DNA of 15,304 nucleotides from Deltaproteobacteria bacterium TL4 (lineage in GTDB: Bacteria > SAR324 > NAC60-12): the NCBI GenBank assembly GCA_051382335.1, contig JBBCAX010000345.1, forward strand, positions 1 through 15,304, in the 5' to 3' direction. Of this stretch, positions 1,908 through 14,227 are shown one piece after another. Numbering within the stretch: position 1 is the first letter of the stretch; every line of letters begins with the position of its first letter. The notes under the pieces are model-generated. The model was not told where the DNA came from and ran no database searches. It saw nothing but the letters and a program-made list of their open reading frames with translations. The position numbers and the translations under genes are program-made.

Positions 1908-3497
1908 TCAATAGTTATCAGAAATAAACAGTTTGCTAAAATCGATTTGTTCATCTTCAAGTTGAATGGTGATCCCATTCGGTGCTTTGGGGAGTTGGAG
2001 CTTAATGAAATTTGTTTCGTCTTTTCGATAAAATGACATCTTTGCCTGAAGGGATTCCACCTCGGCCGCAATCATTGAAAGATAGGGTTTGTATAAAGTA
2101 ACGGGTGGAGGTTTTATCGGAGGACCAAACTCCGCTTTTAACATAAGATTATAAATTTCACTGGGGTTTTGATTCAACAACCAATCCGCCATCGTCGCCG
2201 TGATGATATTTTTCTCAAGAGCCCGTTCCACAATCAACTTGGTATCAAAACACATTCCATCGTCACTGTATATGAAATTAAGATTATCCCCATCATTCTC
2301 AATAGCTAATTGGATTTTCGCGACAAACGATTTTCCCATTAGTTTTCTTTCTTTGGGAATTTCAATATGTTCGACGATGATATAGCGTAAGGTGTTGATC
2401 AAATACCGACAGATCCCATGTTGTGCGTAGTGAGAAGATAAAATAATCAGAGGATCCTGAAGTGTGAATTGAATGCTCTTTTCCAATTGATAGGAAAGAT
2501 CCGCCGCAATCAACTTAACACGCACAAAGGTTTGATTGATGAGTTCATTATCAATCTTGATGAGGTGATTAAAACACTTGCTGACTTGTTTTTCTAAAAT
2601 CGCATGAGTTTTGTCATACTTGACAATTTGACGCAACACTTCGAAATCATTGATTAAATCACGGTACTGGCGTTCATCCAAGCCCCAAGGGTTTTCTCTC
2701 GTACGATGGTATCCGATATCTTTTTTATAATTAAAATAAACCGCGATCACATCTCCTAGCGTAATCATATCCCAAAGAGTACTCAAAGCAAACCGATAGT
2801 CCTCAAACCACTCTTTTGAAAGAGGGTTTGATTTTGCTTTTTCAAGGCGGTCCTGAATCAATTCACAAAGTTCAGTCATTTTATGCACTTGCAACCAAGT
2901 GGTTGTTTTCTGAATTTCACCACATTGCGTTTGAATATCTACATAGGATTCCAATACGTCTTCCGGTGTAAAAGATTTAGACTGAATCCCTTCATAATGG
3001 GTTCTGAGATCCTTAAACGAATAATTATAAAAAGCTTCACCAAACCCAATACCACGATAGTATTCATCCAGATACATTTGTACTAGAGCCGATTCATGCT
3101 GAACGTTAATATCGGATGCGTCAACAAGCTGAATAATCAGAAAGGTAGGAGCTTGTTTTCGCGAATAAATGGAGAATTTTAACTCACAGGTGGCCTCTTC
3201 TTCTTCTAATTTTAATTGAGGCGCATTTCGCCCCAGTTCTTCCAGAGAAACTTTTTGAAATAAAACCGCTTCGATCCATTGATAGATTCGATCTAAATCA
3301 TCAATTCGATATTTTCGCAGCAAGCCACTGTAAATATTGTTATTCAGTATTCCGTGCGTTGTAGGAAAACGCTGATAGAAACCTTTAAAGCGAGAAATAT
3401 TTTCAAAAACCACTTTATTGGTTTGAAAATCCATCAAACAAAAGGGTGCTTCTTTAAGCAAAATTTTTGACGCATTTGAAACATTAGTATCAGTCAT
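1908..3497 (-). CDS. CheA-like protein with degenerate Hpt and HATPase domains (probable pseudokinase)
   Basis: EHIEIPKERKLMGKSFVAKIQLAIENDGDNLNFIYSDDGMCFDTKLIVERALEKNII parallels the CheA-specific DHGIE..EER...GK...G.I.L....G....I.V.DDG.G.D...I...A...G.I segment. The N-box Asn, G2 glycines and Hpt His are not recognisable. No CheW domain. Confidence 0.65.
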   Translation of the reverse strand: MTDTNVSNASKILLKEAPFCLMDFQTNKVVFENISRFKGFYQRFPTTHGILNNNIYSGLLRKYRIDDLDRIYQWIEAVLFQKVSLEELGRNAPQLKLEEEEATCELKFSIYSRKQAPTFLIIQLVDASDINVQHESALVQMYLDEYYRGIGFGEAFYNYSFKDLRTHYEGIQSKSFTPEDVLESYVDIQTQCGEIQKTTTWLQVHKMTELCELIQDRLEKAKSNPLSKEWFEDYRFALSTLWDMITLGDVIAVYFNYKKDIGYHRTRENPWGLDERQYRDLINDFEVLRQIVKYDKTHAILEKQVSKCFNHLIKIDNELINQTFVRVKLIAADLSYQLEKSIQFTLQDPLIILSSHYAQHGICRYLINTLRYIIVEHIEIPKERKLMGKSFVAKIQLAIENDGDNLNFIYSDDGMCFDTKLIVERALEKNIITATMADWLLNQNPSEIYNLMLKAEFGPPIKPPPVTLYKPYLSMIAAEVESLQAKMSFYRKDETNFIKLQLPKAPNGITIQLEDEQIDFSKLFISDNY

Positions 3498-3539: not shown

Positions 3540-5717
3540 TCATGAGGTTCTTGACGGAACTTTAACAAAAATTAAGGCACCTTGTAGTATTTTACAGTGA
3601 TAATCAGAACTATTCATATGCACTAATGCATTTTCAAGTAGTGAGCCATTCATGTGTGCTGTGCGTAATTCTTTTTCGGTTAAATCTGTTCCTCTCAAAT
3701 CCGCTTCCCGAAGATCGGTTCTAACCAAGGTCGCTCCTGAAAGCGTTGCATTGTTCAGGTGGACTCCTCGCATCAGTGTGCCGGTCAAATTGGTACGCCC
3801 CATTTTGGCGTATCGTAAGTCCACTTTTTCAAAAAAACAGCGACTCAGGTCCGCTCCCCGTAAATCGACATTGGTGAGATCTACTTTTGAAAGATCATTT
3901 CCGGACAGGTCTGCGCCTTTAAGTCTCGCTTCTGTCAGTTTGACTCCGGCGAAATCCACGTTTTTCATGATGGCGCCTTCCAGGTAAGCACCAATCATAT
4001 CAACCCCCATCAAGTGTGCTCCAGTAAAATTGGCACCTGTCATATTGGCCCCTTTCAGAATGGCGCCCGTCATGTTGGCTTTTTCCAGGTTGGTTCTTAA
4101 CAGTTTTGCGTTCGAAAGGTCTACATTGGTCAAGTTGGCCTGTACCAGTTGACAATCCTCCATTTTAGCGCCACGAATCAAGGTTCGTTCGAGAATCGCA
4201 TTATTAAACGTTGTGCGCGTTAAATTAGCATTATTCATATAAACGTCGGTTAAGTTTGCGCCAGAAAAATCCGATCCTTCCAAGTTCGCTTTATATAAAT
4301 TGGCTTCAATCAGGTTGGCATTAATAAATTTTGAATCTTGCGCCTCACAGCCACTCAATATCGCAGCGTCTAATCGGGCATTGCTGAAATCAGCAGCGTT
4401 ATATTTGGCATCAATGCATACCGCTTTTTCCAAGTGGGCTGATTTAAAATTACACTGATCAAATTCAGACGAAACCATATTGGCTGTGGTCATGACGCAA
4501 CTTTCAAAATTCGTCTTGGAACCTTTCGATGAAAATAAATTGAGATTCAGCATTTCTGAGTTTTGAAATTGGGCCCCATCCAGTGTGCTTTGAACAATGC
4601 TGCTTTCAATCAAACGGCAATTAGAAAAATCAGCCTCATGAAGTTCAGAATTCCTGATTTCAACAGACATGACTGAATTGTTAAAAATACTCCCATGCAT
4701 CTGGGTGTCAATGATTTGAGACTCAAAGATGGTACTGTGATTAAAATCGGAGTGAGAAAGATTTGCCCCTAGAAAACGCACAAAATGCAATTTTTGCTTC
4801 ACACACGAAGAATAGGGGGTCTTGAATTGATGAAAAGAAATATCCTTAAACTCCAGCCCATCCAGATTGATTTTTTCAAAATAGGGCATCACTTCCAAAT
4901 CCAATTCTTCCGAAGTCAAAGAACGAGCCAGTATCAGCCAACGTGAAAACTGAATGGCGGTAGTTTTATCTTTGCAGGGAGTCCACTGTGCCTTGAGATA
5001 GTGATGGCACTCTTGAAGCAGGCGAAATACAAACATTCCGGCACGAGCATTACAAAAAATAGTAGGGCGCCCCGTCTTATTATAAGCATGGAATTGAGCA
5101 TTGAAAACGAAGTCCTCAACCGGTTCCTGCCGAATAATTTTTTCAAAAAACAGCATAAACCGCTTGATGATAATAGAGGCAATCTCATGCCCCTGGGGAA
5201 GGCTATCCAACCATTGTCCGAAATCATCAAACAAATGATACGCAGATCCCGTTGGTGTTTCAGATAACAACTGGAGCATCACCTGATTATCAATTTGATT
5301 CCATCGATCTTCACGTGCGTGGTGATCCGACCAGTTTAATAAATTCTGGTGTAACCATTCCGTGTTTAATGAATTTCCATTGAGAGCTTGGTTCTGGGGG
5401 GCTAATGCTCCTGAAGGCTCTGCCATGGGTTCATTCTGCAAGTCCTCAGTGTTTTGCTCTTGAGTGTGAGAACTTTGGACATTCAAAGACGTTTCCAGTT
5501 CGGGCAGTGCCAGATCCCTGTGGGCTTTTATTTTCGGTGTTTGTGCGTCAACACCCAGTTCTTCAGGATCTTTAAGCGCTAAAAGTTCGTCCTCTGAATC
5601 CTCTTGATCCTCAGGCCGTGCTGCCACAGACCCGGATCGGGTCCCCTCAGACGCAACCGCTAGTTTTGCCTCATTCTTTATTCCAAGTTTCAACTTGTCC
5701 AAGCTTGACTCCTTCAT
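3540..5717 (-). CDS. Pentapeptide-repeat protein (725 aa) with an acidic low-complexity N-terminus
   Basis: The C-terminal ~400 aa are A(D/N)Lxx-type repeats (ANLIE ANLYK ANLEG SDFSG ANLTD; ADLSG NDLSK VDLTN VDLRG ADLSR). Confidence 0.92.
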   Translation of the reverse strand: MKESSLDKLKLGIKNEAKLAVASEGTRSGSVAARPEDQEDSEDELLALKDPEELGVDAQTPKIKAHRDLALPELETSLNVQSSHTQEQNTEDLQNEPMAEPSGALAPQNQALNGNSLNTEWLHQNLLNWSDHHAREDRWNQIDNQVMLQLLSETPTGSAYHLFDDFGQWLDSLPQGHEIASIIIKRFMLFFEKIIRQEPVEDFVFNAQFHAYNKTGRPTIFCNARAGMFVFRLLQECHHYLKAQWTPCKDKTTAIQFSRWLILARSLTSEELDLEVMPYFEKINLDGLEFKDISFHQFKTPYSSCVKQKLHFVRFLGANLSHSDFNHSTIFESQIIDTQMHGSIFNNSVMSVEIRNSELHEADFSNCRLIESSIVQSTLDGAQFQNSEMLNLNLFSSKGSKTNFESCVMTTANMVSSEFDQCNFKSAHLEKAVCIDAKYNAADFSNARLDAAILSGCEAQDSKFINANLIEANLYKANLEGSDFSGANLTDVYMNNANLTRTTFNNAILERTLIRGAKMEDCQLVQANLTNVDLSNAKLLRTNLEKANMTGAILKGANMTGANFTGAHLMGVDMIGAYLEGAIMKNVDFAGVKLTEARLKGADLSGNDLSKVDLTNVDLRGADLSRCFFEKVDLRYAKMGRTNLTGTLMRGVHLNNATLSGATLVRTDLREADLRGTDLTEKELRTAHMNGSLLENALVHMNSSDYHCKILQGALIFVKVPSRTS

Positions 5718-6051: not shown

Positions 6052-6247
6052 TTAACTTATTGCTAACCAGTTAAACTTCATTTTTTTCTTGAGTTTGAGA
6101 GAGTTTATCGATGTTCCCTGATATTTTTTGGGCAATCCATCAACAATCGCTACAATGGGAAGAACAGCATTGGCTTTGATACGTGACAAAAAATAACCTC
6201 CCGCTTGCTCAATGAGAATGTGATCTTTGGCAGAATCGTTGATGGCT
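6052..6247 (-). mobile_element. IS4-family transposase fragment fused to the truncated helicase
   Basis: IEQAGGYFLSRIKANA resembles the segment following the D(R/L)GY motif of IS4-family transposases. Base composition switches abruptly from GC-rich to AT-rich near 6250. Confidence 0.55.
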
Positions 6248-6808
6248 GCCCCTGGAGCTAGACGCTGTAAGGTGCCGATGTCGTCGTTCAGCACGAGATG
6301 GAACTGCTCGTTGAAGTGGGTCTGCATTTCCGCCACCCACTGGGTGGCGATGCCTTTGGGGGAGACAACCAGGGTTCGACGCACCAGCCCGCGCAGCTTG
6401 AGCTCGCGCATGACCAGCCCGGCCTTGAGGGGCTTGCCAAGACCCACTTCGTCGGCCAGCAGGTAGCGCACGCGGTCGCCGGAGATGGCCCGGGACAAGG
6501 CGTGGATCTGGTACGGCAGCGGAATGACGTTGGACTCCATGGGAGCCAGCAATACATGGCCATCGGTGGCGCGAGCCTTCAAGCACCTCGGCCACCTTGG
6601 CTGCGGCGGCCACATAGGCAATGCGTCCGGCCTCAATCTCTGGCTGCAAGTCGGCACTCAACGGCCGCAAAGCGGAGCGGGGCACGCGCACCACCGCGTC
6701 CTGGTTCGGCAACCAGACACGGCAAACCGTCTGCCCCCACAAGGTCTATTCCTCGATGACCTTGCAGGCGCTGTTATGAACGGTGCTGTATTGCCATGGA
6801 GAATTCAT
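6248..6808 (-). pseudogene. SNF2-family helicase (BrxHII-like), 5' remnant
   Basis: ATG at 6808 overlaps the upstream TGA. There is an in-frame TAG at 6746-6748 (VIEE*TLWGQ) and a frameshift near 6571. SNF2 motifs follow (PLPYQIHA, RYLLADEVGLGK with decayed PLK in place of TIE, LVVSPKGIATQWVAEM), then truncation near 6248. Confidence 0.88.
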
Positions 6809-7464
6809 ACGGTTGCCATTCTCCTAATTCCATCACGAAAAGCTTTGAAACTTGGAGATTGATTCGTTTGCACGTCAAGTAGCGGACAGATCTCTTTGGC
6901 CCAAATTCTTTTCTGTTCAAGAATTCTGACAGATCGTTTGCCGTGCTGTCCCAATGCTGTCAAGCCGCCAGGGTAGATCGCCTCTGCAAGTTTTTCCCAT
7001 GTGCCACACTGAGAATCTTGGACATAGGCGTCTAATACCGGTTGTCGAGCCTCAGGGTATGCTTGCTTGATTGCGTCTTGATCGCCAAGGAGCCAGGCTT
7101 CAAGTTCCTCGATGGCTATACGAAAGAGCGCATTTGGTTGTTGTGGGCAATGGTCCAGAAGCTGAACTAAGTCAATTTTGAATGAGACACAATCAGGTCT
7201 ATCATCGAGATCAACTAATACAACGACAACAACATCATCACGCCCTTCATCACCGTAAGCACGAAGTTTCGATGGCAGGTTGTGCAAAAGAGTTTGATCG
7301 TGTTTGTTGGGTTTCGCTCCGAGATTATCAGGAATCCGACCGATTCCACGATGTTTATGGATTTTCCATGTGTGCGGGTTACCATAATCACCAAGAACCC
7401 GATTCATCAGGATGGAGAGGGCAGTCAACTCAGCCTGTCCCTCGACAAGAATTTCGAAGTGCAT
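6805..7464 (-). CDS. TOPRIM-like protein (DUF4276/RloB-like), partner of the ABC ATPase
   Basis: N-terminal ILVEG, central VVLVDLDD (DxD), IEELEAWLLGD and C-terminal NQSPSFKAF. It starts 3 nt after the ATPase stop. Confidence 0.8.
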   Translation of the reverse strand: MHFEILVEGQAELTALSILMNRVLGDYGNPHTWKIHKHRGIGRIPDNLGAKPNKHDQTLLHNLPSKLRAYGDEGRDDVVVVVLVDLDDRPDCVSFKIDLVQLLDHCPQQPNALFRIAIEELEAWLLGDQDAIKQAYPEARQPVLDAYVQDSQCGTWEKLAEAIYPGGLTALGQHGKRSVRILEQKRIWAKEICPLLDVQTNQSPSFKAFRDGIRRMATV

Positions 7465-7467
7465 GCT

Positions 7468-8706
7468 CTATCTCGCGTCCAGATAATCGCTGTACCATAA
7501 GGCACCGAGTGGCTGCCCCTCATTGACCATGTTTTGAACAAACTGAATTTCATTCGCCCTTTTTACCGTCGAAAATCCATCGCTCCCTTTTTCGAGAACC
7601 CAGACCTCGCTTGGTTCTAGTGCGTCAACAAAATAGGGTTGGTGCGTGGTGATAAAAATCTGCGAGTCCCCTTTCTTGCCAGTTGTATGTTCACGAAACT
7701 CGCTTGCCAATGTTTCAAGCAGTTTGTGGTAGAGACCATTTTCCGGTTCTTCGATGCAAATGAACGGCGCGGGTTCGGGATCATTCAGCAACAGCAGGTA
7801 ACTGAACATCTTGAGAGTACCGTCTGACATCTGCTGTTGTGTGAATGGCTTGACAAAGCCTTTATCTGTGAAAAGTAGATAAAGATTATTCGTTATTTTG
7901 TCCCGATAGGGCGTGATGATGCCAATGCCAGGAATTTTTGCCGAAATTTCATGGAGAATACGCTTGAAAATGATGGGATGGGTCCGCTCCATGTATTGCA
8001 CAACATTGCCAATGTTGTCGCCATGCAGATTCAGGTGTTTTTGTACGCCCGCTTGGGAAATTTTTCTGGCAGAATCAGGTGTGAAATAACTCAGATACCA
8101 GCTCTGAATAAATTTCTTAAATTGAGCAATACGTGGGTTTTCCGAAAATTGTTCCGCGAGAGATACAATGGCCAGCTTATGAGGATCAAATTCAACAATT
8201 CGTTTTGACGCTTCATCCCCTTCAAGTGCATCATCGCCGACATAAACTGTGCCTTTCCCATTTTCTAGATGCAAAAATGACCTAGGTCGGCCAGATCCTC
8301 CGCTGCTTTTTGCACGTTGCCTTAAGCGCTCACTGAGGACAATGGGCAATCCTGTTTTTTCTTCTTTACCAATACTCACTTCATATGTAATTGGCCGGTC
8401 GTTTTTCGATTCGCGATAATAAATTGTTATCGCAATAGGCTGATCGATTCCCAAGGATACCAGCTTGTCATAACCACCACGATTTCTTGCATTACAAGCT
8501 GTCTCCAAGTCTGTTTCCATGCAATCTGCAACGAATCTAAAGGCATCGAAAATTGAGCTTTTACCAACTCCATTTTTACCGATAACTACCGTTAATGGAG
8601 TCAATGGATTCGCACTGCGTAATGATTGATCAGTGCCAATTCTCCCCATTGCAATATCACGCAATGATCGATAATTCTGAATCTTAAAGCCTTCAATAAG
8701 TGCCAT
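7468..8706 (-). CDS. ABC/AAA_21-type ATPase (412 aa; true start MALIEGFKIQNYRSL)
   Basis: IQNYRSL, Walker A GKNGVGKS, signature QMSDGT, Walker B/D-loop CIEEPENGLY and H-loop TTHQP are all intact. The ATG at 8706 overlaps the methyltransferase TAA (TAATG). Confidence 0.92.
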   Translation of the reverse strand: MALIEGFKIQNYRSLRDIAMGRIGTDQSLRSANPLTPLTVVIGKNGVGKSSIFDAFRFVADCMETDLETACNARNRGGYDKLVSLGIDQPIAITIYYRESKNDRPITYEVSIGKEEKTGLPIVLSERLRQRAKSSGGSGRPRSFLHLENGKGTVYVGDDALEGDEASKRIVEFDPHKLAIVSLAEQFSENPRIAQFKKFIQSWYLSYFTPDSARKISQAGVQKHLNLHGDNIGNVVQYMERTHPIIFKRILHEISAKIPGIGIITPYRDKITNNLYLLFTDKGFVKPFTQQQMSDGTLKMFSYLLLLNDPEPAPFICIEEPENGLYHKLLETLASEFREHTTGKKGDSQIFITTHQPYFVDALEPSEVWVLEKGSDGFSTVKRANEIQFVQNMVNEGQPLGALWYSDYLDAR

Positions 8707-10424
8707 TATTCGCCTCCCATTCTTGTTACTGCCTGGTCGTACCACATGAGCCGTTTGGGATCTTCTTCCAGGACGTTGTTGGGGATCTTGTCGGCCACGG
8801 CGACGATGACGGCGCAGTCGCGCTCCTGCCAGGCTTTCTTGAATCCGACGCGGACAGCTTCCAGGCGGAAGACCTTGATTTTTTTTTTGACCTCTTTGTA
8901 TTCCTCGAACTCCTTGAGCAGCGCCTTCTCGCACAGCTTCTCCAGGTCGCCCGCTTTGTTGGGATCTGGCACGTACCAGCGGTCGCGGGCCTTGGCGACC
9001 AGGGTCGGATCATCCTTGGGCAGGTTGCGCATTACTTCGCCCGAATACTCAGGACAAACAAAAACATCACTCCAAACCGTATAATTGATTTTGCCAAGTG
9101 GAGCCGGCTTCCAGCCGGCTTTTTCCAACTCATCCGCCACATATCTCCACAAGTATTGCTCAGCCTTTTCAACAAGGCCAGCTTTAACCGGATTATGATT
9201 CAGATAAGCCAGTTCATTGGCAAGTTCACGGGCTTCACGGATGATTCTGTCATAGGTCTCTGTTTGCCAGACTTTTGCCCCTGTCTTGCCTTCCAGCTTA
9301 TTGACTTCATTGGCGCTAAAACTCTTCACGCTATGCAATAGAACAGACAGATCCCAGAAGATTCCCGCCTCTTTTTCCAGTGGTTTGGCAATCAAATGAA
9401 CATGATCAGGCATGATCACAACGGATAATAATTTCCAGCGTTGGTTATCCCAATGCAGGATAGCATTCAGAACTGCCGATCTGGATTCCGGTGATAAAAT
9501 GCGAAAATTATCGGTGCGAAAAGTCAGAAAACAGGTTGCCCCGGCAACCTGGATATGCGGTAAATTATCTTTGCGATATTCAACTTTGGTAACATTAAAT
9601 GGATCGCATGGTTGGAAATCAATGGCTGTAAGCAGCCTGCTGGAAGCAGGCTCCACATGGAGTGTTTCATACATCCAGTCGCATTCCTTCTCGACCTCCG
9701 AGAGAATGCTTTTGGCCTCTTTCTCAAACGCTGCCACATCGACCGGGGTGTTGTAGTTGTACGCAATGAAGGTCGCCGCCGGTGACAAATCGTTCAGAAC
9801 TGTTTTACGCACACCCAGTTTTGAAAATGGCAGCCAAACCTTTTTGCCATCTTCATCCGTTTCTTCCTGCAAAATGGTTCCGTCCGGCTTTACCTGGTAG
9901 CCAAGAGACATGACCACTTCGCTGTCGCCACACATTTGCGCAGCCACTCCCGTCATGCCGGTTCCGCAGAACCCGTCGAACACGATGTCCCCCGGCTGGG
10001 TGTAATGGAGGATGTACCGCATGATCGCCTTGTGCGGCACCTTGGTGTGATAGGAGTGCGCATTGTAGATGGGGTCGTTCTTGCCCTCGCTCACATCGGC
10101 CGCAAAGGGTTCGCGGTGATAGTGATAACCTTCAGGCTGCTCTGGCTTCTGCGCCTCCCACTCGGCGATGAAGTCGGCGATCCACGGATTCGGGCAGGCG
10201 GTGTAGTACGGCGGATCACTTAGATTCAGGATGTCCTCGTTGCTGCCGATGGGAAAGCCTTCGATCTTGCGGAACTCCGGGTCTTGCAGCTTCTTGCTCA
10301 GCTCCTCGGTAAAGTGGGCACGGCGGGCCTCGTCGTTCTCGAACGTCATGCCGAGACAAGTCACCGGGCCGGAGGGCTTCTGCGGCTCTTCAAGCAGCGA
10401 GTCGAACAAACTGTTTTGTATCAT
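8706..10424 (-). CDS. DNA methyltransferase (BREX type 3 PglXI-like) with an in-frame RAYT insertion and a probable large internal deletion
   Basis: Motifs LSDPPYYTACPNP, AHSYHTKVPH, SAM-binding FDGFCGTGMTG, NDLSPAATFI, INYTVWSDVFVCPE and C-terminal RWYVPDPNKAGDLEKL. The jump GEV|MRNLPK near 9033 skips the long central region I recall from full-length homologues, so the gene may be non-functional. Confidence 0.85.
   Translation of the reverse strand: MIQNSLFDSLLEEPQKPSGPVTCLGMTFENDEARRAHFTEELSKKLQDPEFRKIEGFPIGSNEDILNLSDPPYYTACPNPWIADFIAEWEAQKPEQPEGYHYHREPFAADVSEGKNDPIYNAHSYHTKVPHKAIMRYILHYTQPGDIVFDGFCGTGMTGVAAQMCGDSEVVMSLGYQVKPDGTILQEETDEDGKKVWLPFSKLGVRKTVLNDLSPAATFIAYNYNTPVDVAAFEKEAKSILSEVEKECDWMYETLHVEPASSRLLTAIDFQPCDPFNVTKVEYRKDNLPHIQVAGATCFLTFRTDNFRILSPESRSAVLNAILHWDNQRWKLLSVVIMPDHVHLIAKPLEKEAGIFWDLSVLLHSVKSFSANEVNKLEGKTGAKVWQTETYDRIIREARELANELAYLNHNPVKAGLVEKAEQYLWRYVADELEKAGWKPAPLGKINYTVWSDVFVCPEYSGEVMRNLPKDDPTLVAKARDRWYVPDPNKAGDLEKLCEKALLKEFEEYKEVKKKIKVFRLEAVRVGFKKAWQERDCAVIVAVADKIPNNVLEEDPKRLMWYDQAVTRMGGE
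9098..9120 (+). repeat. REP hairpin, downstream boundary of the RAYT cassette
   Basis: GTGGAGCCGGCTTCCAGCCGGCT: GGAG motif, 8-bp stem, TCC loop. Translated on the minus strand as AGWKPAP. Confidence 0.9.
9634..9656 (-). repeat. REP hairpin, upstream boundary of the RAYT cassette
   Basis: GTGGAGCCTGCTTCCAGCAGGCT on the minus strand, 21/23 identical to the other copy. The two differences are one compensatory G-C to T-A pair. Translated as VEPASSRL. Confidence 0.9.
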
Positions 10425-10657
10425 AAATGTTTCTCCAATAATTCTTTGCCCTTGGCTGTGATGATATATTTCTGCATACGGCTTTGGGGTTTGTCGGGAA
10501 TGGTGCGGACAATCAACCCCTCTTCCAGCAGACGGTTGAGGTAGTTGCGCTGGAATGTTTCCCTGTGTTTTATCCCTATAATCTCCTGAAGGTCAGTGCT
10601 TTCCAGGTCCAAAGCTTTCTGCCAAACAATCAAATCCTTGTAACTCTGCACGCTCAT
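10421..10657 (-). pseudogene. Chimeric ORF: four-helix-bundle (23S IVP-like) N-terminus fused to a Fic-associated C-terminal wHTH
   Basis: MSVQSYKDLIVWQKALDL is the typical start of four-helix-bundle proteins. LQEIIGIKHRETFQRNYLNRLLEEGLIVRTIPDKPQSRMQKYIIT is the typical C-terminal HTH of Fic/AlbA-ATPase proteins. Junction near 10603. Confidence 0.75.
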
Positions 10658-11147
10658 ATCTCGCCCCTCGCCCCTAAATCCTCGCCCCTCGTTTCAACAA
10701 TCAGCGCATCGACCGAGTCATAGCTGCGGTACTCGGGATGGCCGGTTTCGGTGTATAAAAGCCTCCCGGAATTCATGATTCCGTTCCACGAAGCCACCAC
10801 GGCCCGGTTTCTCGAAATGCCCTCCAGCAGGCGCAAGGGGTCCTGCTGGAGGTCCTTGTCGAAAAGAATCTCGAGATTATCCAGCACCACGGGTGCTTGA
10901 GCCTGGTTCGCAATCTGATTGAGGATGCCCGGCAACCGAAGCGACCGCTGCTTTGCAGTCAGCTCAAGCAGCTCGCCTGAAAGCGCCAGATTGACGTTGA
11001 CGACGGATGAGCCAAACTCCTCGGCAATATCCCGAAGAACACCGGTCTTGCCGGAACCAGTCTCACCCACCAGCAACACCAGGCGGTGATACAAGCCTTG
11101 GCTGCCTGGAGGGATCGTTTTATCTTGTCGTGAATCGGCTCGGCCAT
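10654..11147 (-). pseudogene. brxF: BREX type 3 P-loop protein BrxF, frameshifted
   Basis: SD AAGGAG and ATG at 11147 (MAEPIHDKIKRSLQAA). A 1-nt shift near 11099 joins GLYHRLVLLVGETGSGKT, VNVNLALS, VVLDNLEILFD, DPLRLL and GHPEYRSY. Confidence 0.85.
10660..10691. repeat. Heptamer tandem repeat (CTCGCCC)n
   Basis: CTCGCCC CTCGCCC CTAAATC CTCGCCC CTCG, immediately upstream of the four-helix-bundle ATG. Confidence 0.8.
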
Positions 11148-11360: not shown

Positions 11361-11629
11361 AGCCTTCGTCCTTCGTTCATCATGTTTTCGGTAAAAGCCC
11401 GAAGGTCTCCGGGAAACCCGAAATCCGGACACAGTGCCACAAATTAACCTCCATAAACTACATTGATGGATTGCCAAAATCAAGCGTTTGTACCGAATAG
11501 AGACGATTTTTCCTAAAAACGGCCTGATTGTCGTTGGTAATACGGTCGCAGTTCTGAGGCGCATGCATGGTGTCAGTCCATACAGCACAGGCAATTGAGT
11601 CCATGGATGCCGCCACCATTACCCGCTGG

Positions 11630-11732
11630 TATAGTTGTCCAGATAAATTCCTGCTGGGAGCGCAGGCGTCCCGCCTGCTTTTGTGGGCAAGATGCCCGCG
11701 CTCCCAGAACAAAACTTTTCTGGAGAAGTATA
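11630..11732. mobile_element. MITE-like element copy 1 (TA-flanked, imperfect TIRs) with a GGAG REP doublet
   Basis: Left end TATAGTTGTCCAGATAA versus right-end reverse complement TATACTTCTCCAGAAAA (14/17). Internal inverted REPs span 11654-11707. Confidence 0.75.
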
Positions 11733-11818
11733 TTTAAATTTAAATCTAAACTCTGAATTGCTGGAGGTTTTTGCTTATTATGAAAAATAAACTGGTAATT
11801 ATAAGGATTTTCCCTATG

Positions 11819-11919
11819 TACAGTTGTCCAGATAAATTCCTGTTGGGAGCGCAGGCGTCCCGCTTGCTTTTGTGGGCAAGATGCCCGCGCTCCCAGAACA
11901 AAACTTTTCCGGAGAAGTA
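11819..11919. mobile_element. MITE-like element copy 2
   Basis: Direct repeat of 11630-11730 at offset 189, with 4 mismatches in 101 bp. REP doublet at 11843-11896. Confidence 0.75.
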
Positions 11920-13300: not shown

Positions 13301-14227
13301 ATGAACGGCTTACTACATAAAATTAATATTTTAGTCATTGCTGGCGTTCTCTTTCTGGTCAGTAGTCAACCTCTTTATGCAGCCAAAACGCTGCTTGGCT
13401 TTATGTTTGGGTCTAAAGGAAAGGTGGAATATTCCTACCAAGAGACCCAATGGAAAAACGCTCCCCGTAAAAAATTCATAAACAAAACCCTTTTCTTGAA
13501 AACTTCGGATAACGCGGAAGTCAAAGTCTGGTATTATCAAAACAAGAGAGTTTATGTCCTGAAGGCTCAATCCTCAATGAAAGTCACGCCCAAGGAAGTG
13601 AGAAAATTATCAGGTAACGTCGAGCAATTTCTCCTGGATAAGCCTCAATTTTTAGGCATTAATCAAACCTACCTCTCAGCCAAACAGTTTATCCTTAAGA
13701 ACAAAAACAAAATTCAACCTTCCTTCGATGTCATCGATTTGGTACTTTCAAACGATTATTCTGAAGTTATATGGCCAAACATTGGAGAAGAATATGATTA
13801 TAAGGTTTATGTCGGAACAAAAACCTATGAAGTCCCAAGTGATGAGAAAGAGTTTTCACGCTTAACACTTATTCCGCTACCAGGTCAGAGCACCAAATAC
13901 CGAATCAGCGCGTTTGAAAAAAGCGAGATGATTTATGAGACACAAGTTCACAACATTCGTTGGCTTAGTACTTCAGAAGAGAAAGCCTTTCATAAAAGTC
14001 TGCAGATGCTTCACCAGTTGGACTCCGATGATATCTTATCGGCGCTCTATCTGGAATCCTTGGGTCTGAAAGTTGGGGCAATGGATATCTACCGTCAGTT
14101 TTTGAAAAAAAATCCGAATGAAAATGATATCCGTTCCATACTCATTCCTCTTTACGCACAATTAAATTTGACGCATCTACATCTTGAGGAGTTAGAAACT
14201 TACTTTGGTTCCCTCAATTCGAAGTAG
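13301..14227 (+). CDS. Exported hypothetical protein with a helical (TPR-like) C-terminus
   Basis: 308-aa ORF with a signal-peptide-like N-terminus (KINILVIAGVLFLVSSQPLYA). The C-terminal AMDIYRQFLKKNPNE...LIPLYAQL resembles one TPR unit. Confidence 0.75.
   Translation: MNGLLHKINILVIAGVLFLVSSQPLYAAKTLLGFMFGSKGKVEYSYQETQWKNAPRKKFINKTLFLKTSDNAEVKVWYYQNKRVYVLKAQSSMKVTPKEVRKLSGNVEQFLLDKPQFLGINQTYLSAKQFILKNKNKIQPSFDVIDLVLSNDYSEVIWPNIGEEYDYKVYVGTKTYEVPSDEKEFSRLTLIPLPGQSTKYRISAFEKSEMIYETQVHNIRWLSTSEEKAFHKSLQMLHQLDSDDILSALYLESLGLKVGAMDIYRQFLKKNPNENDIRSILIPLYAQLNLTHLHLEELETYFGSLNSK

Follow-up and report, generated by a model that had tools for sequence, protein, structure and literature searches.

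A complete REP-RAYT-REP cassette read in frame inside a BREX type 3 methyltransferase, with a homing-like distribution among PglXI alleles

A 15,304-nucleotide stretch of the genome of Deltaproteobacteria bacterium TL4 (GenBank assembly GCA_051382335.1, contig JBBCAX010000345.1; hereafter, the window) holds pglXI, the gene for the DNA methyltransferase of a type 3 bacteriophage exclusion (BREX) system. Within this gene, and in its reading frame, lies a REP-associated tyrosine transposase (RAYT) between two inverted repetitive extragenic palindromes (REPs). The insert is a complete REPtron (REP-RAYT-REP) read in frame inside PglXI. On balance, with a probability that we put at roughly 60%, it is a permanent in-frame element that is active on its own hairpins and moves between PglXI alleles, helped by its own nicking and strand transfer.

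The cassette occupies window positions 9096 to 9656 (minus strand) and consists of 187 stop-free codons placed exactly between the host sequences WMYETLH and GKINYTVWSD. It forms residues 257 to 443 of the host open reading frame (ORF) at 8706 to 10424 (minus strand; 572 amino acids including the insert; PADLOC PglXI, 1e-187). REP1 (9634 to 9656, minus strand), translated as VEPASSRL, begins at the first base of the insert; REP2 lies inverted (9098 to 9120, plus strand), 2 nucleotides inside the other end, where the coding strand reads AGWKPAP. Each REP is 23 nucleotides long, with a GTGG foot, an 8-bp stem, and a 3-nucleotide loop, and the sole difference between the two is one compensatory pair. 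Together they form the longest inverted repeat of the window, with DNA hairpin z-scores of -2.5 and -3.7, and a search of the 6.6-Mb genome for REP1 with up to 4 mismatches returned only REP1 and REP2. Between them lies the HUH/Y1 core of the RAYT (insert residues 34 to 170; 9147 to 9557, minus strand), with an HVH metal-binding motif (MPDHVH, insert H85 to H87; 9396 to 9404, minus strand) and a predicted catalytic tyrosine in the motif YLNHNP (insert Y151; 9204 to 9206, minus strand). H87 and Y151 are invariant in the insert alignment, and H85 is nearly so. The insert scores 84.9 bits against the NCBIfam model NF047646 for REP-associated tyrosine transposases (cut-off, 80), and its predicted structure (predicted local distance difference test score of 88, built from 26 relatives) best matches the Escherichia coli TnpA-REP structure 4ER8 (E value, 3.6e-8; template modeling score, 0.60). 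A preliminary description made from the DNA letters had claimed the 187-codon in-frame RAYT, its HVH and tyrosine motifs, and the REP ends with their compensatory pair, and all of these were found as claimed.

The same description held that the insert lacks a stop and has no ATG upstream of the domain. This was borne out: there is no in-frame ATG before insert codon 82, no stop follows the domain, and upstream of it the one codon that could serve as a start is the GTG of the REP foot. An internal start yielding a free RAYT as the norm was rejected on these grounds. One continuous ORF runs over host and insert in the window and in 37 other carriers that span both junctions. Pfam and NCBIfam scans returned no intein family, and the insert begins with V and ends with L, followed by G, which are not splice residues. 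The cassette is single-copy in its genome, with no dispersal to unrelated sites; its cognate REP family comprises the two copies here and one related copy in another pglXI remnant, and is likewise not dispersed over the 6.6 Mb.

A search for longer proteins gave 55 matches: besides the window protein, these are 39 further PglXI clusters and 15 hosts of other kinds. In all 37 of the other PglXI clusters that span both junctions, the cassette sits at the same loop, with insert identities of 45 to 73%. At its N-terminal end the carrier insert reads VEPASSR (VEPASCR in one case), and at its C-terminal end GWKPA, followed by two or three residues. HxH and the tyrosine are each present in 38 of 38 carriers including the window (37 by pattern and P0019 by eye), and the methylase motifs FxGxG and DPPF are kept in 23 of 23 carriers of at least 1,000 amino acids. 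The source names include Thermotogota, Candidatus Omnitrophica, Desulfonatronovibrio, Opitutaceae, Rubrobacteraceae, Chloroflexota, and Desulfomonile, and both halves of the fusions appear in their JGI and NCBI labels. With a synonymous-degenerate DNA pattern for the right junction, 19 metagenome loci were identified, of which 15 have both junctions. At each of six carrier loci whose neighbors were scanned (20 chosen ORFs), brxC, brxH, or pglZ was found. At locus L026, a defense reverse transcriptase (UG19-like; 8106 to 10202) lies immediately downstream of the carrier pglXI.

The N-terminal region of carrier P0021, used as a query, matched at least 7,999 PglXI clusters, and the insert was absent from all of the best 119 relatives examined (110 parsed and 9 by eye). 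Among the 110 parsed alleles, the loop at this site has 6 residues in 81 (mostly TDGKTK), 5 residues in 28, and 34 residues in one. Because empty alleles hold a 5- to 6-residue loop that is absent from carriers, the cassette replaces the loop. The preliminary description had the position right but missed this replacement, which is not a clean insertion; the short-loop empty alleles that it had proposed to look for exist. P0217 and P0213, two RAYT-free PglXI proteins, carry unrelated inserts of ~35 to 45 residues in this loop, which thus tolerates other insertions. In the second host clade, the empty allele L037 shares 82% identity with carrier P0037 up to the site and 83% with P0035 beyond it. 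A near-identical empty allele was not found as DNA, plasmids giving 4 distant matches at 68 to 76%; genome contigs returned only 2 weak loci for the insert, and viral contigs returned 0 loci for the REP pattern and no match to the empty allele P0197. Four DNA runs and four RNA-library runs that were mapped gave empty-site contigs, and one DNA contig, from an unrelated sediment, crosses the right junction. No RNA contig from the four RNA-library runs covers the insert, which has no bearing on expression.

We next consider what selection has maintained. The left foot is GTGG in 12 of 15 loci and GTAG in 2, and belongs to another REP in one (L027); the right foot is GTGG in 15 of 19 loci and GTAG in 4. 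Apart from L027, the only foot variant is thus GTAG, the canonical alternative, and at the right foot the change from GTGG to GTAG produces a P-to-L substitution in AGWKPALL. In L027 (6025 to 6618, minus strand), the left end is a different REP and further REP copies lie inside, which suggests that a terminal REP may be replaceable. In an alignment of 28 REPs (10 distinct; excluding three duplicate loci and the left REPs of L027 and L029, which deviate), 96% of the cells in the stem columns are paired and 4 of 8 pairs change on both sides, a level reached in 0 of 500 shuffles, a result that is inflated by the relatedness of the sequences. Across 13 distinct inserts, invariant core residues use many codons, whereas REP codons are fixed or covarying; only 0 to 4 of 46 REP bases differ between inserts, while synonymous sites of the core are saturated (proportion of synonymous differences of at least 0.74 in 14 of 15 pairs). 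The one unsaturated pair has a core dN of 0.056 and a dS of 0.32. These patterns indicate that the RAYT protein is under purifying selection and that the hairpins are kept as DNA, both being maintained. Selection on a DNA hairpin inside coding sequence, which had been proposed for the cassette from its single compensatory pair, is supported across the family by compensatory pairs and by REP bases that stay nearly fixed despite saturated synonymous sites.

The histories of host and insert differ. The window host is 94 to 95% identical to empty alleles (94% to P0197), versus 81% to the nearest carrier, and in a quick tree of 32 carriers with long N termini and 110 empty alleles it nests among 62 empty rows. 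The approximately unbiased (AU) test, run on 32 carriers and 16 selected empty alleles, rejects a single host clade for the carriers (P = 1.25e-4); a single host clade for insert lineage II is also rejected (P = 6e-5). Conversely, the insert tree (37 rows) resolves two fully supported lineages, each present in host clades A and B, and the AU test on this tree rejects the grouping of clade A (P = 5.7e-11) and of clade B (P = 4.6e-19). Vertical inheritance was judged here against the host gene tree, not a species tree. The inserts of P0003 and P0009 are 78% identical, while the adjoining 40 residues on each side are 52% and 45% identical; in most close carrier pairs, the insert is about as alike as the flanks. 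The host-versus-insert comparison that had been suggested for this element thus reveals conflicting trees (P values of the order of 1e-4 or lower), and together with the nearness of the window host to empty alleles, this indicates that the cassette has changed hosts among PglXI alleles. Its distribution is of the homing type: the same allelic site, empty cognate alleles, and lateral spread.

A 220-row RAYT tree places 36 PglXI inserts in one cluster of 42 rows, with a weak support of 28. Of the six rows beyond these, five resemble fragments or frameshifted versions of PglXI inserts, and none belongs to another host family. We read this as one old insertion, followed by spread between alleles at this site. 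The preliminary description had imagined a unit that moves into tolerant loops; since the VEPASSR/AGWKPAP lineage (the 42-row cluster) was found only at one PglXI site, it appears to be an allele-to-allele element instead.

Carriers also bear additional REP copies. REP-derived peptides occur elsewhere in the same protein, in about eight loops, in 16 of 29 carriers of at least 850 amino acids, versus 0 of 108 empty alleles. In the DNA of 16 loci, 26 extra REPs lie inside the host gene (33.8 kb), versus 4 in the flanks (62.7 kb); the nominal P values of these contrasts (2e-13 and 7e-9) are overstated, as related loci share sites. In the carriers with GTAG feet (L023, L024, and L028), the extras are mostly GTAG. 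That extra REPs are found in carriers only points to an active, cis-acting enzyme. The window allele has none, which fits a recent gain.

The best 150 representatives of this RAYT clade include 57 of at least 300 amino acids, and 55 of these were scanned. A host family was found in 47 of the 55, with 17 families in all, mostly housekeeping: Ham1 (10), class I tRNA synthetases (8), PurH (7), and AlaRS (6), together 31 of 55, and further PriA, RecG, Hsp70, BirA, shikimate kinase, pyruvate formate lyase, and several restriction-modification proteins. Most of these long relatives have repeat-like peptides beside the domain, some fusions are partial or terminal, and the PurH inserts form one clade (support, 97). 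The search for this RAYT clade in unrelated proteins, suggested at the outset, thus met with many in-frame hosts, occupied by other lineages with other REPs. This pattern favors a general lifestyle in which lineages are specific to their hosts, and it speaks against recruitment for defense. The window's genome has a second in-frame RAYT, in a 1,207-amino-acid methylase (contig C336, 1352 to 4972, minus strand; DUF1156-like by resemblance). The REP family that flanks it has 136 genome copies at up to 3 mismatches, including the 102-nucleotide repeats at window 11629 to 11730 and 11818 to 11919; of the nine RAYT-like frames, no other has a REP of this family within 1 kb. In this draft assembly, the fused RAYT on C336 may therefore drive a genome-wide REP family in trans.

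The window copy of the host is itself damaged. Compared with P0197, it is identical at 243 of 258 positions in the N-terminal part and at 101 of 108 in the C-terminal part, and residues ~287 to 828 of P0197 (~540 residues), including the DPPF catalytic motif, are absent in frame. The deletion junction lies at 9030 to 9034 (minus strand), ~21 codons past the cassette, and loose ends fall at 9031. Eight substitutions are private to the window PglXI compared with nearly all close relatives. The preliminary description had placed the insert correctly in this host and missed the deletion. The window host copy is internally deleted and likely a pseudogene, and fusion function is to be judged from its relatives. 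A RAYT-made origin of the deletion was considered and is unsupported.

These results suggest the following course of events. After one old founding insertion, the cassette would be expressed from host signals, with no start or stop of its own, and would likely be made as a permanent domain of its host; the cost would be low, because all full-length carriers keep both methylase motifs. The RAYT is likely still active on its own REP hairpins. The free enzyme TnpA-REP cleaves single-stranded DNA on the 5' or the 3' side of a REP, at a dinucleotide that the foot selects, and carries out strand transfer; for one such enzyme, a GTGG foot directs cutting at CA and CC in vitro (PMC8266576). The fused RAYT would likewise bind its REP on single-stranded DNA, cut at the guide-selected dinucleotide, and transfer strands. 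Its own gene, when single-stranded, would be the substrate, both for local copying of REPs, of which only in-frame copies in loops would survive near the source, and for crossing into empty alleles over short homology. BREX islands are horizontally mobile. In a cell that contains both a carrier allele and an empty one, the cassette would cross to the latter and take along little of the host sequence beside it, a movement in which its own nicking and strand transfer probably assist. The window copy looks like a recent gain by an allele that later decayed with its locus. A bolder proposal, that protein-embedded, non-splicing REPtrons constitute a new class of homing element whose single-strand HUH enzyme copies the cassette into empty alleles across phyla and seeds in-frame REP peptides in loops of the gene that hosts it, is possible, and we put it forward tentatively.

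Several observations weigh against the reading of a mobile, self-assisted cassette. Grouping host clade C in the insert tree is not rejected (P = 0.06), and host and insert identities correlate (Mantel r, 0.29), so that much of the inheritance is vertical. Empty alleles were sampled almost only around one carrier, and quick trees do not distinguish gain from loss; the cluster on which a single origin is read is the weakly supported one. Split or frameshifted carrier forms occur (P0057 to P0060 and P0293), and the window's own fusion is predicted to be unable to methylate. The empty alleles L004 and L037 hold no cognate REP. An empty allele would thus offer no REP for recognition, and nicking at the cassette's own REPs could equally promote loss. 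PglXI may also tolerate inserts better than its neighbors do, which would bias extra REPs toward the gene, an objection answered by the contrast with empty alleles of the same gene.

Some of the adverse evidence favors a specific alternative, namely, that the cassette is a passive passenger: an old insertion whose RAYT maintains and copies REPs, spread solely by ordinary recombination within pglXI at the conserved motifs WMYETxH and GxIxY, and without any homing advantage. PglXI alleles do swap central blocks, P0004 and P0005 differing in theirs (25 to 58% identity) between near-identical flanks, which shows that PglXI recombines freely regardless of the cassette. Carriers are rare (~40 clusters versus at least 7,999 PglXI matches), roughly half a percent of the family or less by a carrier count that is possibly incomplete. 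The junction is identical everywhere and has no loop codons, as expected from the copying of one old event, and non-splicing inserts have spread between phage methylases with no known driver (PMC9957025). We nevertheless consider this explanation unlikely, though the best of the alternatives. Transfer between clades that are 45 to 52% identical by the junction left clade-typical flanks, which is hard to achieve by long-homology recombination, and both insert lineages are found in both major host clades.

Recruitment of the RAYT as a single-strand nuclease that adds a defense or DNA-processing function to BREX-3, which the preliminary description had also offered, is improbable. It would account for the purifying selection on the domain, for the BREX genes at all six scanned loci, and for the restriction-modification proteins among the other hosts. 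Yet most long relatives sit in housekeeping proteins (class I and alanyl tRNA synthetases, PurH, or Ham1), more than 99% of PglXI clusters are without the domain, and a recruited protein domain has no need of terminal hairpins conserved as DNA. Removal of the cassette before function, by a DNA excision switch or by protein processing that frees the RAYT, is more improbable still. HUH/Y1 relatives of the IS608 type do excise precisely, and of CA and CC, the dinucleotides selected by the GTGG guide in vitro (PMC8266576), CA stands one base ahead of the foot of REP1 in 12 of 13 distinct loci and CC or CA ahead of that of REP2 in 15 of 17. Host His and Gly codons, however, largely dictate these dinucleotides; the two REPs are on opposite strands; and a cut at the feet would leave unrestored the lost loop codons, which every parsed empty allele has (six in most, five in 28). 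No loop-less empty allele occurs among the 119, and the insert ends are not intein splice residues. The case that the His codon, CAT in 13 of 13, plays a special part was also considered and is weak: ATC is used for a nearby Ile almost as uniformly (12 of 13), and CAT occurs in an empty allele as well. Finally, an assembly artifact or chance fusion in a dead gene, which could appeal to the pseudogene state of the window copy and to the failure to find a public run with the source strain (20 small shares, best 0.13), has a negligible chance and is refuted for the family by the same junctions in 39 other protein clusters and 19 metagenome loci and by the sediment contig across the right junction.

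The locus around the window host appears to have decayed as well. Upstream lies brxF, which encodes the BREX-3 P-loop protein (10654 to 11094, minus strand; NF033453, 2.7e-54), and downstream a frameshifted and truncated brxHI/HII helicase remnant (6052 to 6742, minus strand; PADLOC PDLC02500 matches in two frames). brxC and pglZ are absent from the window locus and present on other contigs of the same genome, where a second BREX-3 locus seems to be split over contigs C263 (brxF-like, brxC), C105 (pglXI remnant), and C347 (helicase, pglZ). The C-terminal pglXI remnant on C105 (11384 to 11929, minus strand) contains a single in-frame REP of the cassette's family, at a C-terminal site that recurs in carriers P0004, P0005, P0006, and P0013. 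A 78-amino-acid ORF with only a Fic-like C-terminal domain (10421 to 10657, minus strand) is an apparent deletion remnant at the expected place of brxC. Between pglXI and the helicase lies a pair of genes for a HEC-01A ATPase and a HEC-01B/DUF4276 protein (6805 to 8934, minus strand), in the same order as in carrier locus L025. Farther out are a 725-amino-acid pentapeptide-repeat protein whose long N terminus is without assignment (3540 to 5717, minus strand), then a 529-amino-acid protein (1908 to 3497, minus strand) with no Pfam match, and, on the other side, a protein with magnetotaxis MtxA domains (13301 to 14227, plus strand). Positions 609 to 770 hold nested inverted repeats, with 24-nucleotide perfect arms around a 26-nucleotide GTAG-footed hairpin pair; the inner repeat has 37 genome copies, and the region overlaps the start of a KilA-N ORF at 89 to 640.

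RAYTs are held to be domesticated, extragenic, and non-jumping, and the question touched here is how REPs spread in vivo. A whole REPtron inside a protein appears to change host alleles across phyla, and filled alleles collect REPs while empty ones have none. The natural filled and empty pair, 94% alike, and the short target gene offer a direct assay of REP insertion and cassette transfer. The cassette would represent a splicing-free lifestyle of selfish DNA and would supply defense and housekeeping enzymes with new loops and domains; annotation mislabels such fusions as a transposase or a methylase alone. If the homing interpretation were true, no RAYT before this one would have been shown to move itself, and the cassette would stand for one among many host-specific lineages inside essential proteins.

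We found no published description of a REP-RAYT-REP cassette inside a host protein, although such fusions may be mentioned in subscription journals or in supplementary files of bioRxiv papers or of PMC3733652; a term search in 10.1101/119735, 10.1101/2021.07.10.451892, 10.1101/279083, and two supplement files of PMC6006769 returned none. RAYTs have been described as extragenic, non-jumping, and vertically inherited (10.1101/2021.07.10.451892), and Quentin et al. (10.1101/279083) report no evidence of mobility but favor other routes of horizontal transfer, and they set aside proteins of excessive length, which they took for fusions or annotation errors. Among known systems, the cassette resembles the REPtron in its HUH/Y1 transposase with a fold like that of 4ER8, its inverted REPs, and its GT[AG]G foot, and its REPs match the Stenotrophomonas maltophilia type in size and shape (PMC8266576). 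It differs from free-standing, extragenic REPtrons in having no start or stop of its own and lying in frame in a host gene, in changing hosts across phyla, and in REPs that pile up in the host gene rather than genome-wide. Like intragenic REPs, RPEs, and TnpA-Y1 subclass 2.4, it has REP palindromes translated in loops (PMC3733652; 10.1101/279083). Known in-frame REPs, however, come without a transposase, as 20 to 82 residues of repeat only (PMC3733652), and subclass 2.4 has in-frame REPs inside the transposase gene, whereas here a whole transposase lies inside a host protein. IS200/IS605 elements (IS608, ISDra2) share the Y1 transposase fold and hairpin ends, but the ends of the cassette are inverted REPs on opposite strands, it has no multicopy spread, and both profile and fold are closer to RAYTs. 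Inteins are comparable, and the nearest analogy is with the non-splicing inserts of phage methylases (the ShiLan domain and a second LAGLIDADG endonuclease; PMC9957025), which likewise lie in frame at a conserved methylase site, have patchy, non-monophyletic carriers, and move between divergent alleles. In contrast to these systems, the cassette has no splicing domain or double-strand homing endonuclease but a single-strand HUH enzyme and hairpin ends, and its site is a variable loop that is replaced. Taken together, these comparisons indicate that the cassette is a variant of the REPtron with a homing-like distribution, new with respect to the literature searched.

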